A stretch of 64,000 nt of DNA from TPA_inf: Saccharomyces (GCA_000146045.2 BK006947.3:96001-160000); one strand, 5' to 3'; shown: positions 81-8,877, numbered from the stretch's first letter. Program-made: numbers and translations. Notes: generated from the sequence alone by a model not told the origin.

Positions 81-240
81 AACTGCAGTAAAAAAATGTA
101 TTACCCCCATATCTTTGGTACTTAAGTAAAATAAGTGAACACAATGTAATAAACAGAATGGATTAGGGCTTTATGACTTCCCAGTACAAAATAAATGTCG
201 ATATAATACTTGAAAATGCAAGCAATGCCATCAAAAAATT

Positions 241-312
241 TGAGCGGTACGAGAATCGAACCCGTGTCCCCACCTTGGAAGGGTGGGATGATAACCACTA
301 CACTAACCGCCC
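241..312 (-). tRNA. tG(UCC): tRNA-Gly (anticodon UCC)
   Basis: The reverse complement is a 72-nt cloverleaf, GGGCGGTTAGTGTAGTGGTTATCATCCCACCCTTCCAAGGTGGGGACACGGGTTCGATTCTCGTACCGCTCA. It has a 7-bp acceptor stem with one G-U pair, a TAGTGGTT A-box region, a CTTCCAA anticodon loop with UCC, a GGTTCGATTC B-box, and a T-run (rc of 231-240) right after its 3' end. Confidence 0.8.
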
Positions 313-420
313 ATGTGTTGGATGGTGTAACTGTAATGACGAGGTAATAAGTGATGGCGACTATATCACCACCGAAACACAGCGATTACTTAAAAGGGTA
401 ATCACTACTGCGATTCTAAT

Positions 421-609
421 TGTTGGAATAAACCAAACCTCTTCCGATAATGTTGGAACGAGAGTAATTAATAGTGACATGTGTTGCTATGGTAACAATC
501 TAATGCTTACATCGTATATTAATGTACACCTCGTATACGTTTAAGTGTGATTGCACCTATTGCAGAAGGAATGTTAAACGAGAAGCTCAGACAATACTGA
601 AGCTGTGTT
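421..609 (+). repeat. Possible LTR remnant (begins TGTTGGAATAAAC...), apparently truncated at the Ty1 insertion point
   Basis: It starts with the TGTTGGAATA inverted-terminal motif shared by Ty1/Ty2/Ty4 LTRs. Its body is not a canonical delta and it has no terminal CAACA. It lies between a tRNA gene and a Ty1 element, where LTR debris is expected. Confidence 0.25.
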
Positions 610-941
610 TGAGAAATGGGTGAATGTTGAGATAATTGTTGGGATTCCATTGTTGATAAAGGCTATAATATTAGGTATACAGAATATACTAGAAGTTCTC
701 CTCGAGGATATAGGAATCCTCAAAATGGAATCTATATTTCTACATACTAATATTACGATTATTCCTCATTCCGTTTTATATGTTTCATTATCCTATTACA
801 TTATCAATCCTTGCACTTCAGCTTCCTCTAACCTCGATGACAGCTTCTCATAACTTATGTCATCATCTTAACACCGTATATGATAATATATTGATAATAT
901 AACTATTAGTTGATAGACGATAGTGGATTTTTATTCCAACA
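610..941 (-). repeat. Ty1 3' LTR (delta)
   Basis: Identical by eye to 6192-6523. The ORF-track peptides from the two copies (605-853 and 6202-6435) are identical over 77 aa. Confidence 0.9.
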
Positions 942-963
942 TACCACCCATAATGTAATAGAT

Positions 964-3900
964 CTAATGAATCCATTTGTTTGTTAATAGTTTGAATGTT
1001 TTTATCGGAAGAGGTTTGGTCATTACGTCTGCAATATTCTTTTTGGTTTCGATATAGCATACGTGCAGATGATTTCCTGATACTTCATCTCTCAATCTCA
1101 TTGCTTTAGTACCAAAAAATCTGTTCCTAAATTTCTCTTCATTATTGGATATAATTATACTGATTGTAGATTTACTGTCGGTTAGTAATCCTTTGGTAAT
1201 TGGTTTCTTGTCAAGTTCTTGTATCAGGTAACTTAGATTATTTAATAATGGGACAGATTCACTTATCGCGTGTATTTCTGCTTCCGTAGTTGAAGTACAT
1301 GTTAATGAAGCCTTGGTGGACTTTCCTCCAATTACCTTTCCATTAAGTAAATATATGTTGCCAATTTGTGATTTATAATACGGTTGGTTGCCATACGAGG
1401 CATCGCTTATAACAACTAATTTATTTGTTGGCTTAACAGGTTTGCTTTTGTGCCATATTAATTGCTTATCTCTCGTATTCCATATGAACTGTATCAATTC
1501 ATATGTCATATCTAACACTTGCTTGGACGGAAATAGTATATGTTGTGCAAGTGTGTTGATGTAGTATAATAGGTCAAATCTAAATTTATATCCAACATAT
1601 GATGCTAGACCTATCAGCTTTTGCATTTCATGTACCTTCATTTTGTAATCATCTTCTTCTAGCTCTAGTTCTTGCTGGTCTATATATAGACCTGGTTGAC
1701 CTGGAGCACTAAGTTTCCTTCCTTTTGGGTTTAAAGGTACGTTTAGTTTGGGTATTTTTTCAGTTAATGAGTTTTCCATACCCAATTTCATGTATTTACC
1801 TCTTTGGTATTTGATTTCCAAGCCAAGAATGTCATATTGAATTTCCTCATCACTTTCGCCTAGATTTATAATCTTGGTGTCGTATTGCATCTTAAGCTTC
1901 TCTATAATTCTTTTGTTTGAATTTAGATTTTTGCTAAACAATACCATATCATCTACGAATAAACAAATTGTCACTTGACTGTTTTTAAATACGCATGACC
2001 ATCCACGAACTTCTTCCATACCACATTGTTGTATCAGGTATGATTTGATAGTTTCGTACCAGTTCGCACCACTTTGTTTCAATCCATAAAGCGATTTCTT
2101 CAAACGTATTAACTTATCATTCATTCCTAAATGTGGTGGAGGTCTTATGTATAATTCTTCTTTGATGTCTGCATACAAATATGCCGAAGATATGTCTAAT
2201 TGTGTAATATAGTAGTTATTGTCTAATGCAAGTGACAGGGATGTCATTAATGCATAGTGATGTACGGTATTGGATTGCATGCCTGAGTCGTAAGTGTCAG
2301 GATGTTGAATATCACCTCTCGCAACAAATCTAGCTTTATGAGTACCGTCACGTTTCCTGTTAAAGATAAACATTGAATTTATTACTCTTTTGGGGTCTAT
2401 TTCTTTTCTGTCATAATATCTGTCAGTGTCCCAAGTTTTCATCTTCAACAGTTGGTTGACTTCTTTGTGGTATGCTTCGATATATTTTTCTTTTTCTTTA
2501 ATATCTTTATTATAGGTGATTGCCTCATCGTATCGTAAGGTTGTTCGTATTGGTTTGATTGATTTTACTGCTTTTACAGCTGCAATCAGGTGAATTCGTT
2601 TCTTCGATCTCGGAGGTTCTAAACTACGCATATTCTTAGTATTCCATGTGTCTCGTGATACCTTAATTTCAGTTTCATTATCTTCTAATGATCTTTTCTT
2701 ACTGTTGATAGTAGTATAGGCATTAGAGTCACCAATACCACCCAAACTGGAATTAGTTTGACGAGAATTGATCGGTGGAAGTTCTTTAAAGGAGTCTGAT
2801 AATTTGGTAGGAGGTTCTGGAGGCAGATCGGGAAGTGGAAGATCAGCAATTATAGATTCCTCTGTATTCTCCTTAGGACAGGTATCTGACGTTTTGATAG
2901 GAACGACGTGGTGTAGTGAATTACTTTCTGATGAGGAAGTATCGATCGAAGGTGAACGGTGTATAATCCTTTTCTCAGTCTCCTGTTCGCTTGTCTGCGG
3001 AACAGTTTTATTATTGGTACCACCCGTACTGGATATTGGTACGTTTGTATGATTAGTCTCATTGTCACTGTACGAGTCTGAGTGTCTGAAATCTTTAGAT
3101 TTACTGGTGTGCGACGATTCATGTGTGTTATATTGGGACATGGGAGCAAGTAAAGGAACATCTAATCTATGCATACCACCCGAACCAGTACTCTCGATAT
3201 CGGAAATTTGGGGGGTGCTAGATCTCTTCTTTGATGGAAGGATATTAGATTTAGATATGTTGGGATCAACTTCTCTGGGTGCGCGAATATTGGTTTTAGA
3301 AACACGTTTCGAATCTTCAGTATGAGTTGACGGAGGTGTGGAATCGGTTGGACTCACAGCTTTTGAAAGGACATTTCTCGGTTGCTCAGGATGTAGTTCG
3401 ATGTCAGATTGGAAGTCATGGTCAGATTCTATGTTAAGATCATCGGATTGTTGGATCTCATTTGACGCAATGAACGATTGATATGAAGCAGTTAAACGGT
3501 TTAAGTCTTCATCGAAAGTGAGTGCGTCGTAATTGAATTGATCTAATCTGGATTCCTTGCCCTGAAGAATAACATAGTTAGTTGTATCTACTGTCTTCTT
3601 TAAGGATGGAAGATAGATGATATATCCATAAGAGTTTCGAGACGGATGTAGAGCGTAGCCTGGGATGCCACGAGGATGTATTTTGGAGTTAGGGTTGTGA
3701 TCATTGACGATAACAGGTTGACCGAAAGGTAACAAAGTACTGATATCAAGTCCTGCCAAGCCAGCATGTTGTCTTGCAGATTTTTTGCTTTTAGGTGAAG
3801 CTAGTGAATTTCTCACAATAGTAGAAAATTCGATTGCAGAGAACCATAAATGGTTCGGTAAACCACTACATTGCAGTTGAGTACGGCAGTCATCTAATAA

Positions 3901-4930
3901 GGTACGGTTGAGCCGTTCAGCGACTCCATGTGCTCGGGAATCCGCTGTGGTTGTATAGCATGGAGTTATACCATTTTTTTCAAGGAATTTATGGAGAGTT
4001 CTGTTAGTATACTCAGAACCACGGTCCATTTGTATAACCAAGACACTGGCCTGAAACTGGTTCTTAATAAAAGCTAGTATCGTAGTAAAAACATCGAGGA
4101 TAGAGTCCTCGCGACGGTCGTGTAATGGATAAACCCAACGGAATTTTGTTGTCTCATCAGTAAATGAGATGAAATAGGATGGTGCACTTTTTGGTAGGTT
4201 GTGAACTGGACCAAATATGTCAGTATGTAGGTATTGAAAGGGTTCGTATGAATTTTGGTATTTTAGTCGTGAACCTTTGATATGTCTGTGTTTGGTGCTT
4301 TTGCCGATTAAACAATCAGGACATTGATAGTCAATAGCACTAGACCAGTCGACATCTGATTCGTTAAAATACGTGATGGTGTTATTTTTAAGTGAGTATC
4401 GAATTGTCTGTGCATTGGCATGTGCAAGCATTCGATGAATGAAAGGATAAGGATATTTGCGTGTACTTTCACTTGTATGGACATTATTGATGGTGGGTAC
4501 GGAGATATTTGATGGAAGCAAGTACTTTTTAGATACCCAGTAAAAGTCTCCATATTTTACGATAGGTGCAAGTACAGTGCCGTCAGATCGTTCTAAGACG
4601 TTTTTGGTAAAGCATGCTGTGATATCTACTGCAGCCAATTCATTCAAACTGAGTAAGTCATAGGCTATGTTAGGAGTGTGCAATACCTTTATTGATGTTT
4701 TGGTGTTGTCCTGGAAGTGAAATTGTAGGTCACCAATAGCGTTAATTGGTATATTTCTTTTTTGAGCATCAACTACGTTTATGCCAGGATTAGATGATGC
4801 TGAGTGTATGTGGTGAGCAGATCTTATAAGGGTTCGTGATGCTCCTGAATCGAGAAGGAGGTGTCCAGGGAGTTCATCATCAGAATGATTAGTGTGATTT
4901 ACCGTAGATTCAGTAAGTTCCTGGCCTAAG
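964..4930 (-). CDS. TYB: Ty1 TYB (Pol: protease, integrase, reverse transcriptase/RNase H), expressed as a TYA-TYB fusion by +1 frameshifting
   Basis: A 1239-aa ORF is reported from the first Met, but the frame stays open upstream to the TYA overlap. The frameshift heptamer CTTAGGC (rc of 4924-4930, GCCTAAG) lies 12 nt before the TYA stop. Integrase zinc-finger and DD35E-like regions and the reverse-transcriptase motif [10 protein letters not shown] are present. Confidence 0.9.
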
Positions 4931-6232
4931 GTGAAGGTCGTGTTTATTCTTCAATTGAATCGGTTCAGTAGTTGATCCTCTTATGAGATCGTTATCAGGG
5001 CCGGAAGAGTTATTAGATGTGGATACGTTATGAGCCCTGGCTGTTCTTGATTGTGAATTATTTGGTTTTTGGGAATTCCGAGTTATGGATTTGGGTTTGG
5101 TTGTATTCGTGTAGGTGCGAGAGTCTTTCTTCTCATCACTCGGATTTCTCCTATAAGTAGATTTATTACGTTTTGATTCCTGTTGTTCTTCATACATAGA
5201 ATGTATGTCTGAAAACAGATCAGCAACTGTCATATGTATATATCGATGACGTGCGTAGCGTAAAAATTTGTACTCGCCAGATAGACCTCTCATAATGAAT
5301 TGGCATGCTACCTTGTTATTGATAGGAATGCCATTGTTGTTTAGTCTGTCAAGAATGTTTGTGACTTCTGCTTCAAATGCATCTGCAGGTGTGCTTCCAT
5401 TATAATGCAAAGTTGCTAGGGTCGTAATGTCATTTACCTCTTGAGTATCAGATTGCATTTTGTTAATGCTTTTGGAAAGAATTTTCATGATATCTGTATA
5501 ATCAGCAGATAAGATGTCTTTAACCCAGGTGGGTAAGAATTGAGATGGAGCAAATAGTTGAAAGGTGTGACATAAGAAGGTGAGTTCGTCATCAGTCATC
5601 TGACGTACGGCTTTTCTTGTTGCTGTCGGAATAATATCACCGAGATTCGAATTTTGTAAAAATTTGATGTATGTTTTAACCCAATTTAGAAAGTCATTAG
5701 GTGAGGTTAACATTGGTGGTGGTCTGACATATTTTTTAGTGGATGTCATATCAGAGTCCGCTGAGGATGAATCAGTAAATGTATTACCTGACTCAGGTGA
5801 TGGAGTGCTCAGAGGCGTTCCAACTGATGATGGATACTGCGGAAACTGTGAATGTGGCCCAGGTGGAAAGTACATAGGCGACATTTGATAAGGTGTATAC
5901 GGAATCATAGATGGGCGTCCGTAAAATGACCAACCAGATGGATTGGCTTGGTTTTGGGTCATCATGCACTGCTGTTGGTACGGCCCATTCTGTGGTGAAT
6001 GTGACTGAGCAGTTTGAGGAGAGGCATGATGGGGGTTCTCTGGAACAGCTGATGAAGCAGGTGTTGTTGTCTGTTGAGAGTTAGCCTTAGTGGAAGCCTT
6101 ATCATATTCTTGAATTTTGGAAGCTGAAACGTCTAACGGATCTTGATTTGTGTGGACTTCCTTAGAAGTAACCGAAGCACAGGCGCTACCATGAGAAATG
6201 GGTGAATGTTGAGATAATTGTTGGGATTCCAT
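4910..6232 (-). CDS. TYA: Ty1 TYA (Gag capsid protein, 440 aa)
   Basis: [16 protein letters not shown]...HLRPGTY is a Ty1-type Gag. Its ATG at 6230-6232 lies inside the 5' LTR at element position about 292, as in Ty1. The stop is TGA (rc of 4910-4912). Confidence 0.9.
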
Positions 6233-6523
6233 TGTTGATAAAGGCTATAATATTAGGTATACAGAATATACTAGAAGTTCTCCTCGAGGATATAGGAATC
6301 CTCAAAATGGAATCTATATTTCTACATACTAATATTACGATTATTCCTCATTCCGTTTTATATGTTTCATTATCCTATTACATTATCAATCCTTGCACTT
6401 CAGCTTCCTCTAACCTCGATGACAGCTTCTCATAACTTATGTCATCATCTTAACACCGTATATGATAATATATTGATAATATAACTATTAGTTGATAGAC
6501 GATAGTGGATTTTTATTCCAACA
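6192..6523 (-). repeat. Ty1 5' LTR (delta)
   Basis: See the 3' LTR. It contains the TYA start codon and is followed internally by the primer-binding site. Confidence 0.9.
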
Positions 6524-6548
6524 GTGTTAAAGATCTATTAGTTGATCA

Positions 6549-6578
6549 TGTTGGAATAAAAATCCACTATCGTCTATC
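6549..6578 (+). repeat. 30-bp delta (Ty1/Ty2 LTR) 5'-end fragment
   Basis: TGTTGGAATAAAAATCCACTATCGTCTATC matches the first 30 nt of the delta consensus and then diverges. It sits immediately beside the Ty1 target-site duplication. Confidence 0.6.
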
Positions 6579-6631
6579 CAAACAATTCTCTCAAAATTCG
6601 CCCAATTCTCAAAATTCACCCATTTCCCACA

Positions 6632-6700
6632 CATATGTGTTTTAGGAACGTTTAGGATAAGGAATCGTCATACTGACGTACCTCATTTTGAGATACAACA
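6632..6700 (-). repeat. Sigma (Ty3 LTR) terminal fragment
   Basis: catatgtgttttaggaacgtttagg...gtcatactgacgtacctcattttgagatacaaca is the reverse complement of the sigma 5' end TGTTGTATCTCAAAATGAG...GAACGTTCATAAAACACATATG. It ends 15 nt upstream of the tRNA-Asn 5' end, the typical Ty3 integration distance. Confidence 0.6.
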
Positions 6701-6715
6701 AATCATATATTATAA

Positions 6716-6789
6716 GACTCCATGGCCAAGTTGGTTAAGGCGTGCGACTGTTAATCGCAAGATCGTGAGTTCAACCCTCACTGGGGTCG
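6716..6789 (+). tRNA. tN(GUU): tRNA-Asn (anticodon GUU)
   Basis: GACTCCATGGCCAAGTTGGTTAAGGCGTGCGACTGTTAATCGCAAGATCGTGAGTTCAACCCTCACTGGGGTCG has an anticodon loop CTGTTAA and the B-box GAGTTCAACCC. It is followed by a T9 Pol III terminator at 6790-6800. Confidence 0.9.
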
Positions 6790-7133
6790 TTTATTTTTTT
6801 TGTATTTGTGCTTATTTACTAAATAACCATTTCACCCTGTTATAATAATGCTTAAAAGAAGAATGTAGTTTTTCTCTTTTCCTTTAACTGCTTTACTTCT
6901 CCCGAAAAAGCAAGATGCAATCTTTTAATATGTTTGAGTTTGCTTAAAGTATATTCACAAAAAAGAAAATAAAAGTTAAAAATTTCTGAAAATCAGGACC
7001 TTATTCGATAGTTGGTCATAAATTGACTGAAAAATAGAATAATTTCGGACACCAAATGAATCATTAACAAGACAATATCTTAAGGTATGTACAAGTGAGA
7101 ATATTACTTATATATAAAACGGTTAACAATTTT

Positions 7134-8108
<975 letters not shown>

Positions 8109-8634
8109 CTAAAGGTCATGAGCTTTAATTTTACGCACTGCGTTTAGTGCAGTTACCTGGAGTTTCAGCCGGGTAAGAAAACTATACGATTGCCAAATAG
8201 AAAAACGGATATAAAGATAGTAGCTGTGAATAGTAGCTTTGTATAGTACATAAAGGTACCTTATCTAACATTGCTTGCGACGCAGAATACGCAAAATATA
8301 CTGTTTAATTGCAATCAGGAGTTTGCTACGGTATTTGGTATAATCGGAACTCATATTGTCCTACGTTCACCGAGACCAATGAACGCACAATAAAATGGAT
8401 ACTTGGAATGCCCTACCCAAAATATGAGCTGCGTTTGTTTTGTGAAAAACGAAAAGTAATTAAGTTGTTTTGCAGAAGTGTGAATAATTGGGGGACGCCA
8501 TTTGGTTTCTCTCTTCTGATTGATTAAAGTTAATTTCGGCACAATAACCCAATGACTGGCTAGGAAACTTCTCGATGCATCCGTGATCTCCCAAGGACGA
8601 AATGGTTTTTATCACGTCCTAACGACATCATATG

Positions 8635-8715
8635 TCCTCGAGGAGAACTTCTAGTATAGTATTTATTAACAATGGAATCCCAACAATCATCAAATTATTC
8701 ACCAAATATACACAG
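8635..8715 (+). repeat. Solo delta 3'-terminal remnant (Ty2-like tail)
   Basis: TCCTCGAGGAGAACTTCTAGTATA...CAATGGAATCCCAACAATCATCAAA matches the 3' portion of the delta LTR. It lies about 90 bp upstream of tRNA-Thr. Confidence 0.55.
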
Positions 8716-8804: not shown

Positions 8805-8877
8805 GCTTCTATGGCCAAGTTGGTAAGGCGCCACACTAGTAATGTGGAGATCATCGGTTCAAATCCGATTGGAAGCA
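8805..8877 (+). tRNA. tT(AGU): tRNA-Thr (anticodon AGU)
   Basis: GCTTCTATGGCCAAGTTGGTAAGGCGCCACACTAGTAATGTGGAGATCATCGGTTCAAATCCGATTGGAAGCA has an anticodon loop ACTAGTAA and the B-box GGTTCAAATCC. A T-run follows. Confidence 0.9.

Follow-up and report, generated by a model that had tools for sequence, protein, structure and literature searches.

YNLCTy1-1, a Ty1'-lineage retrotransposon with a canonical gag tract in a truncated Ty4 repeat on Saccharomyces cerevisiae chromosome XIV

The 64,000-nucleotide stretch of Saccharomyces DNA analysed here (hereafter the window, with positions counted from its first letter) carries a full-length Ty1-family long terminal repeat (LTR) retrotransposon on the minus strand at 610-6523. 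We identify it with high confidence as YNLCTy1-1 of S288C, an autonomous element of the Ty1' (Ty1-prime) lineage with a canonical tract in its gag gene, present as a recent, polymorphic insertion in a truncated Ty4 LTR. Its Gag exactly matches NP_058179.1, the Ty1-NL1 Gag polyprotein of S. cerevisiae S288C (YNL284C-A), and its frameshift fusion exactly matches NP_058178.1 / Q12112, the Ty1-NL1 Gag-Pol of 1755 amino acids (aa) (YNL284C-B). On chrXIV, File S2 of Carr 2012 (PMC3511429) lists YNLWtau1 at 96451-96609 (+), YNLCTy1-1 at 96610-102523 (-), a Ty1 solo-LTR fragment from 102549 (+) and YNLCsigma1 at 102632-102700 (-). Since these coordinates minus 96000 equal the boundaries that we derived from the sequence, the window begins at chrXIV:96001 and the element is YNLCTy1-1.

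Identity and anatomy of the element

The structural marks of the Ty1 family (Ty1/copia, Pseudoviridae) are all present, namely LTRs with a target-site duplication, a primer-binding site and a polypurine tract, the gene order, the frameshift site and a position upstream of genes transcribed by RNA polymerase III (Pol III) (Table 1). The LTRs run TGTTGG...TCTCA with TG...CA termini (TGTTGGAATA...TTTCTCA in the orientation of the element), and direct comparison found zero mismatches between them, the identity ending exactly at both LTR ends and not one base further. The repeat search had listed the pair as 300 nucleotides (nt) at 100%, an understatement that the base-by-base comparison extended to 332 nt. 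By established Ty1 biology, the primer-binding site, TGGTAGCGCC, pairs with the 3' end of initiator tRNA-Met.

A +1 shift modelled at CTTAGGC, with the A skipped, gives an unbroken Gag-Pol fusion of 1755 aa that ends at the TAG at 964-966. TYB encodes protease, integrase, reverse transcriptase and RNase H in that order, and Pfam domains follow the copia order along the fusion: TYA (E = 4e-233), Pol_BBD (residues 459-533, window ~4633-4857), rve (residues 663-763, window ~3943-4245), SH3_retrovirus and RVT_2 (residues 1281-1487, window ~1771-2391). The DSG, HHCC, D-D-E and FVDD motifs, together with the RNase H motifs (residues 1609-1688), are all intact in Gag-Pol.

A preliminary description of this DNA, made from the sequence alone, had already proposed most of this architecture. 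Its two identical 332-bp LTRs survived the base-by-base alignment that it had called for (332/332), and its perfect GTGTT duplication was confirmed at 605-609 and 6524-6528, with one copy in the empty allele L018 (such handles denote sequences that we compared with the window). The primer-binding site and polypurine tract that it took to be intact were located at 6182-6191 and 942-949. TYA, said to be uninterrupted and to start inside the 5' LTR, proved to encode 440 aa from an ATG at window 6232, and TYB, said to be open across CUU-AGG-C (reverse complement of 4924-4930), contains no disrupting stop or frameshift, as the 1755-aa fusion demonstrates.

Two other identities were rejected. An assembly artefact is contradicted by an insertion common to two independent assemblies, and the proteins exactly match Ty1 entries, not Ty2 proteins. 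As for the neighbouring genes, one flank holds an MRPL10-type L27A protein, WSC, POP3, Aha1_N, ERG24 and PRM1, and the other an RRM protein, a gamma-COP-type protein and Rcd1; the genes that flank the syntenic loci match the YNL279W-YNL288W stretch of chrXIV. YNLCTy1-1 has been named in the reference genome since the 1990s, and the element, its open reading frames, the flanking tau, delta and sigma fragments and the recombinant gag are already annotated or published. They are no discovery of this study.

Table 1. Features of YNLCTy1-1 and its surroundings (window positions unless element or Gag numbering is indicated)
Feature	Position	Strand	Details
Full-length Ty1-family element	610-6523	-	5914 bp
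3' LTR (delta)	610-941	-	332 bp; 332/332 identical to 6192-6523
5' LTR (delta)	6192-6523	-	332 bp; holds TYA start codon
Target-site duplication, left copy GTGTT	605-609	.	single copy in empty alleles
Target-site duplication, right copy GTGTT	6524-6528	.	
Primer-binding site TGGTAGCGCC	6182-6191	-	reverse complement; directly after 5' LTR
Polypurine tract GGGTGGTA	942-949	-	reverse complement; directly before 3' LTR
TYA (gag)	4910-6232	-	440 aa + stop (4910-4912); ATG = element nt 292, inside 5' LTR
TYB (pol) frame	964-4950	-	1328 codons open; stop TAG 964-966
+1 frameshift heptamer CTT-AGG-C	4924-4930	-	sole CTTAGGC occurrence; CTT in TYA frame
N-terminal part of Gag	Gag residues 1-181		mismatches: 12-13 to canonical Gags, 44-45 to Ty1' Gags
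C-terminal part of Gag	Gag residues 182-440		mismatches: 51-53 (of 259) to four S288C canonical Gags, 7-9 to Ty1' Gags
Ty1'-like segment	element nt 313-327		8 sites Ty1', 1 canonical
Canonical-like segment	element nt 363-858		71 sites canonical, 4 Ty1'
Ty1'-like segment	element nt 873-1630		99 sites Ty1', 6 canonical
Ty1'-like segment	element nt 3460-5530		121 sites Ty1', 3 canonical (121/124)
tRNA-Gly(UCC) gene	240-313	-	ARAGORN; Rfam RF00005, 58 bits; 5' end faces element, 296 bp away
Ty1 pol relic	432-450	+	19 nt; 19/19 = 3' end of pol (window 1002-1020, reverse complement), also in other Ty1 contigs
Truncated Ty4 solo LTR YNLWtau1, left part	451-609	+	first 159 nt of ~371-bp repeat; last 5 nt = target site GTGTT
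tau continuation	6529-6548	+	tau nt ~160-179
Delta relic, Ty1-type, internally deleted	6549-6631	+	first 30 nt (6549-6578) 30/30 = delta nt 1-30; rest resembles delta 3' end
Ty3 LTR 5' fragment YNLCsigma1	6632-6700	-	69 bp; Carr 2012 (PMC3511429)
tRNA-Asn(GUU) gene	6716-6789	+	ARAGORN; Rfam, 65 bits; element 192 bp upstream

A mosaic gag in a Ty1' background

Rather than a canonical Ty1, the element is a Ty1' whose gag carries, in its 5' half, a canonical-Ty1 tract of ~500 bp. Two large Gag clusters came out of the protein search, one canonical (S288C Ty1-OR, -DR3, -ML1 and -BR) and one Ty1' (Ty1-BL, which is YBLWTy1-1, and Ty1-DR2), and the Gag encoded here is closer to the first over residues 1-181 and to the second over residues 182-440 (Table 1). 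For the nucleotide comparison one reference of each type was used, L006 (canonical) and L011 (Ty1'), either of which may itself be recombinant in pol, and only sites that separate L006 from L011 were counted. These sites switch from Ty1' to canonical and back within gag, and return a Ty1' signal over the 3' part of pol; in the integrase region (element nt 2485-3226), 12 informative sites side with the canonical reference. By codon, Gag is canonical-Ty1-like at ~25-189 and Ty1'-like at ~190-440, the region of p22 and the capsid C-terminal domain (CA-CTD). Both start positions of p22, Met249 and Met259, fall within the Ty1'-type half, as does the CA-CTD. The divergence from canonical gag that marks Ty1' along its whole length is seen at residues 182-440 and is lacking at residues ~25-181.

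This mosaic agrees with the description of the element by Czaja 2020 (PMC7055915), in which YNLCTy1-1 (S288c_f486) is a recombinant, 'essentially' Ty1' with canonical Ty1 fragments in gag, and is left out of 'pure' Ty1'. Kim et al. had earlier labelled it a divergent Ty1', as cited by the same paper. The preliminary description had called the element a Ty1, and as a statement about the family this stands on every structural mark, but a canonical subfamily does not; the comparison with Ty1, Ty1' and Ty2 that it proposed places the LTR, the 3' half of gag and most of pol with Ty1', and excludes Ty2. The wider consequence is that the 'Ty1' copies of S288C vary in the Gag C-terminal domain, on which both copy-number control and DRT2 restriction depend.

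Recency and mobility

The recent insertion that the preliminary description had read from the sequence is upheld, chiefly by empty-site alleles rather than by LTR identity. Ten further alleles of the locus were gathered via the neighbouring MRPL10-type protein. They were sampled one per distinct gene neighbourhood (24 of 765 blocks) and so form a diversity sample, no frequency estimate, in which the spacer between the MRPL10-type gene and the RRM gene ranges from ~1.1 to 7.5 kb. When the element and one GTGTT are removed from the window, the spacer from tRNA-Gly to tRNA-Asn equals the L018 allele base for base, which establishes that the GTGTT duplication is real and not due to chance. The exact insertion junction reads TACTGAAGCTGTGTT|TGAGAAATGG; diagnostic 30-mers are TACTGAAGCTGTGTTTGAGAAATGGGTGAA and ATTTTTATTCCAACAGTGTTAAAGATCTAT for the occupied junctions and TACTGAAGCTGTGTTAAAGATCTATTAGTT for the empty site. 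The empty-site 30-mer was found in eight alleles from other assemblies (L013-L018, L022 and L025). The occupied left junction was found among the sampled alleles only in L001. This is the presence/absence polymorphism that the preliminary description had suggested looking for. Over 10.3 kb of flanking DNA, L001 and the window are 100% identical, and the divergence of the empty alleles from the window is 0.4-0.5%.

An LTR retrotransposon is not lost cleanly, because recombination between its LTRs leaves a solo LTR. Because excision is imprecise and the empty sites are precise, the eight empty alleles were never occupied, and never-occupied alleles imply that the YNLCTy1-1 insertion is polymorphic and young. 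To judge from these alleles, then, the insertion is recent on the timescale of the species and missing from many strains. At a yeast substitution rate of ~1.7-3.3e-10 per site per generation, the absence of differences in 332 LTR positions sets a 95% upper age limit of ~1-3 x 10^7 generations, at a divergence of < 0.9%. This is a weak clock, as a bound of < 0.9% is no tighter than diversity within the species.

L001 itself appears to come from a CEN.PK-type laboratory strain, as its 'SCEN' locus tags suggest. Inside the Ty1 its alignment is split around window 3977-4201, and the segment for 4201-8200 is only 98.7% identical although the unique flanks are at 100%; the internal mismatch is probably a long-read assembly error inside the repeat.

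YNLCTy1-1 is very probably still competent to transpose, a view favoured by the intact reading frames and motifs, a sister copy in L002 and a further copy in L004. The L002 copy has 3 mismatches to the element in 5680 nt and occupies a site ~150 bp upstream of another tRNA gene, one that contains an intron, and L004, a YJM789 contig, encodes an identical Gag beside an unrelated flank. Near-identical mosaic copies at other loci in other strains show that the mosaic lineage transposed after its founding recombination. The tRNA gene of L002 (5833-5938), which reads like tRNA-Trp(CCA), was found by Rfam and missed by ARAGORN in bacterial mode. In the Ty1' lineage, YBLWTy1-1 has been shown by experiment to be retromobile, without self-encoded copy-number control and restricted by the domesticated DRT2 (PMC10951436).

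Two points weigh against a young and mobile element: the sequence of YNLCTy1-1 may be compatible with a disabling missense change or with local silencing, and File S2 of Carr 2012 (PMC3511429) records the insertion as 'Fixed' in 15 of 15 scorable SGRP strains. With regard to the first, an element that is intact but dead or silent, whether through a missense change, the chimeric Gag or its chromosomal context, seems unlikely to us. The literature searched contained no functional assay of this copy and no paper on its locus-specific expression. The two halves of its Gag derive from lineages that differ at ~93 residues (PMC7055915), so that incompatibility between them is conceivable. What argues for competence instead is that every catalytic motif is intact and that the same mosaic Gag occurs at at least two other loci in other strains, one of them the L002 copy.

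The second point would fit an old, fixed insertion with LTRs kept identical by gene conversion between LTRs or between elements. Ty1 does recombine, at least 41 recombination events being inferred among 32 full-length copies (Carr 2012, PMC3511429), and YNLCTy1-1 is itself a recombinant. Nevertheless, this history is very improbable and already largely refuted, given eight alleles with an uninterrupted target and a single GTGTT that were never occupied, and given that the sole allele to share the insertion, L001, has flanks identical to S288C. The calls of Carr 2012 (PMC3511429) were made on SGRP alignments that were reference-based, of low coverage and with 44% of the data missing; 'Fixed' probably arose because repeat reads were aligned under guidance of the reference, or because this hot spot holds further Ty1 insertions. 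The precise empty alleles thus correct the published call, and the insertion is best described as polymorphic.

A tentative and rather doubtful extension concerns regulation. The chimeric Gag, with its canonical N-terminal half and its Ty1' capsid/p22 C-terminal half, might confer a regulatory profile unlike that of either parent. If so, YNLCTy1-1 might evade the p22 copy-number control that the many canonical Ty1 copies of S288C exert, yet stay sensitive to DRT2, the domesticated Ty1' restriction factor, and it could belong to a small set of copies that can transpose in a 'restrictive' laboratory genome. That near-identical mosaic copies have reached other loci and strains would fit a distinct Gag regulation without requiring it.

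Older insertions, the tRNA hot spot and known systems

The target of the Ty1 integration is a truncated Ty4 LTR, YNLWtau1, which the preliminary description had failed to recognise. A metagenome scan with the tau 5' 31-mer returned 12 yeast contigs that define the full repeat, a dispersed sequence of ~371 bp with the ends TGTTGG...ATCAACA and, in L023, a 5-bp duplication ATTTA. No contig among the recovered tau loci linked the repeat to Ty4 coding sequence, and the tau of L026 sits in a delta fragment; the Ty4 assignment is taken from Carr 2012 (PMC3511429), where the copy is annotated as YNLWtau1. At the tau/delta junction the S288C-type haplotype (the window and L018) has a haplotype-specific deletion of 66 bp: L015 and L017 keep 66 more nt of tau at window 6548/6549, L016 retains 66 bp too, and L033 appears to retain the whole tau repeat.

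Between the element and tRNA-Asn, the 30-bp delta stub and the sigma 5'-end fragment of the preliminary description were both recovered. The stub matches delta at 30 of 30 positions, and the sigma end TGTTGTATCTCAAAATGAG at 6682-6700 (-) places its terminus 15 bp before the tRNA-Asn gene. This is the hallmark position of Ty3, in which the sigma terminus lies at the Pol III start, ~16-19 bp upstream of the tRNA gene. The sigma 19-mer, searched across the loci, was found only at the syntenic site, so there was no independent sigma copy to align, and the family name rests on File S2 of Carr 2012 (PMC3511429).

Two smaller matches to Ty1 were also observed. The 19-nt pol relic at 432-450 lies directly against the 5' end of tau and follows TGTTGGAATAAA, a sequence similar to a delta 5' end; all aligned alleles keep the relic. 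It looks like a tiny scrambled Ty1 remnant that is not in the published annotation examined. A weak (~70%) match to delta nt 227-323 lies at window 8628-8703, ~100 bp upstream of tRNA-Thr(AGU) at 8805-8877. In the REannotate output of Carr 2012 (PMC3511429) this match and the fragment at 6549 are merged as one 'solo LTR' at chrXIV:102549-104702. The merge is probably a defragmentation artefact, since its span would enclose tRNA-Asn and MRPL10.

The tRNA-Gly and tRNA-Asn genes are divergent, so the element is upstream of both, at measured distances (192 bp from tRNA-Asn and 296 bp from tRNA-Gly) that bear out earlier estimates of about 190 and 300 bp. Ty1, Ty2 and Ty4 integrate within a broad window up to ~1 kb upstream of Pol III genes, and Ty3 at the Pol III start site (PMC5911963). 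Other strains have been hit in the same spacer: L022 has a full-length Ty1 that integrated independently at window 465-469 (duplication AATTA), L021 another full-length Ty1 near window 6624-6639, L013, L016, L019 and L020 solo LTRs, and L014 elements that are probably of Ty2 type. The preliminary description had seen successive Ty1 and Ty3 integrations into one Pol III upstream window. The repeated targeting holds, and the list was incomplete, as a third family, Ty4 (tau), is also present. The locus is thus a worked example of a nested hot spot upstream of Pol III genes, with three Ty families and independent hits in different strains. In L018, tRNA-Asn(GUU) has a T-to-C change syntenic to window ~6746 (ttggtTaagg to ttggtCaagg).

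As a side result of the database searches, fragments of yeast Ty1 Gag or integrase turned up under bacterial names, Eggerthella sinensis (MCB7039452.1) and Streptococcus uberis (WP_461249341.1), and these are almost certainly yeast contamination of the respective assemblies.

The course of events follows established Ty1 biology. Genomic RNA is transcribed from the 5' LTR, translation of TYA gives Gag, and a +1 frameshift at CUU-AGG-C produces Gag-Pol with protease, integrase, reverse transcriptase and RNase H. Reverse transcription, for which initiator tRNA-Met at the primer-binding site and the polypurine tract serve as primers, restores two identical LTRs. Integrase tethered to Pol III then places the cDNA upstream of tRNA genes, in nucleosomal DNA, with a 5-bp duplication. 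In the present case the cDNA entered the 483-bp spacer between the divergent tRNA-Gly(UCC) and tRNA-Asn(GUU) genes, inside the older truncated Ty4 LTR, with the older delta relic and the Ty3 sigma stub at the tRNA-Asn transcription start beside this target.

Among known systems, the SGD entry YNLCTy1-1 (YNL284C-A/-B; Q12112; S288C chrXIV:96610-102523) is the same element, with no difference. Ty1' (e.g. YBLWTy1-1; Kim 1998; Czaja 2020; Hannon-Hatfield 2024) shares the LTR, the 3' half of gag and most of pol to within ~1% of the Ty1' reference, and differs in that Gag codons ~25-189 of YNLCTy1-1 are canonical-Ty1-like. Canonical Ty1 (Ty1-H3 type; Ty1-OR, -DR3, -ML1 and -BR) has the same architecture, the same protein lengths (440 and 1755 aa), primer-binding site, polypurine tract and frameshift site, and the 5' half of its gag is nearly identical, whereas the Gag C-terminal half and the reverse transcriptase/RNase H region of YNLCTy1-1 are 10-20% divergent from it in nucleotides. 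Self-encoded p22 copy-number control has been described for canonical Ty1 and not seen for Ty1' (PMC10951436). That YNLCTy1-1 is a canonical Ty1 of Ty1-H3 type, fully under p22-mediated control, is hardly credible: the 5' half of gag (element nt 363-858) and part of the integrase region do match the canonical reference, but the Gag mismatch counts (51-53 of 259 residues to canonical Gags in the p22/CA-CTD half, only 7-9 to Ty1') and the informative sites (121 of 124 Ty1'-like at pol nt 3460-5530) refute it, and Czaja 2020 (PMC7055915) classes the element as essentially Ty1'. Ty2 and the Ty1'-type YNLCTy1-1 both have LTRs of the delta class, both integrate upstream of Pol III genes, and they are in part alike in the 3' region of pol; the probable Ty2 element of L014 is ~83% identical over window 620-2766, with no megablast match beyond that pol 3' segment.

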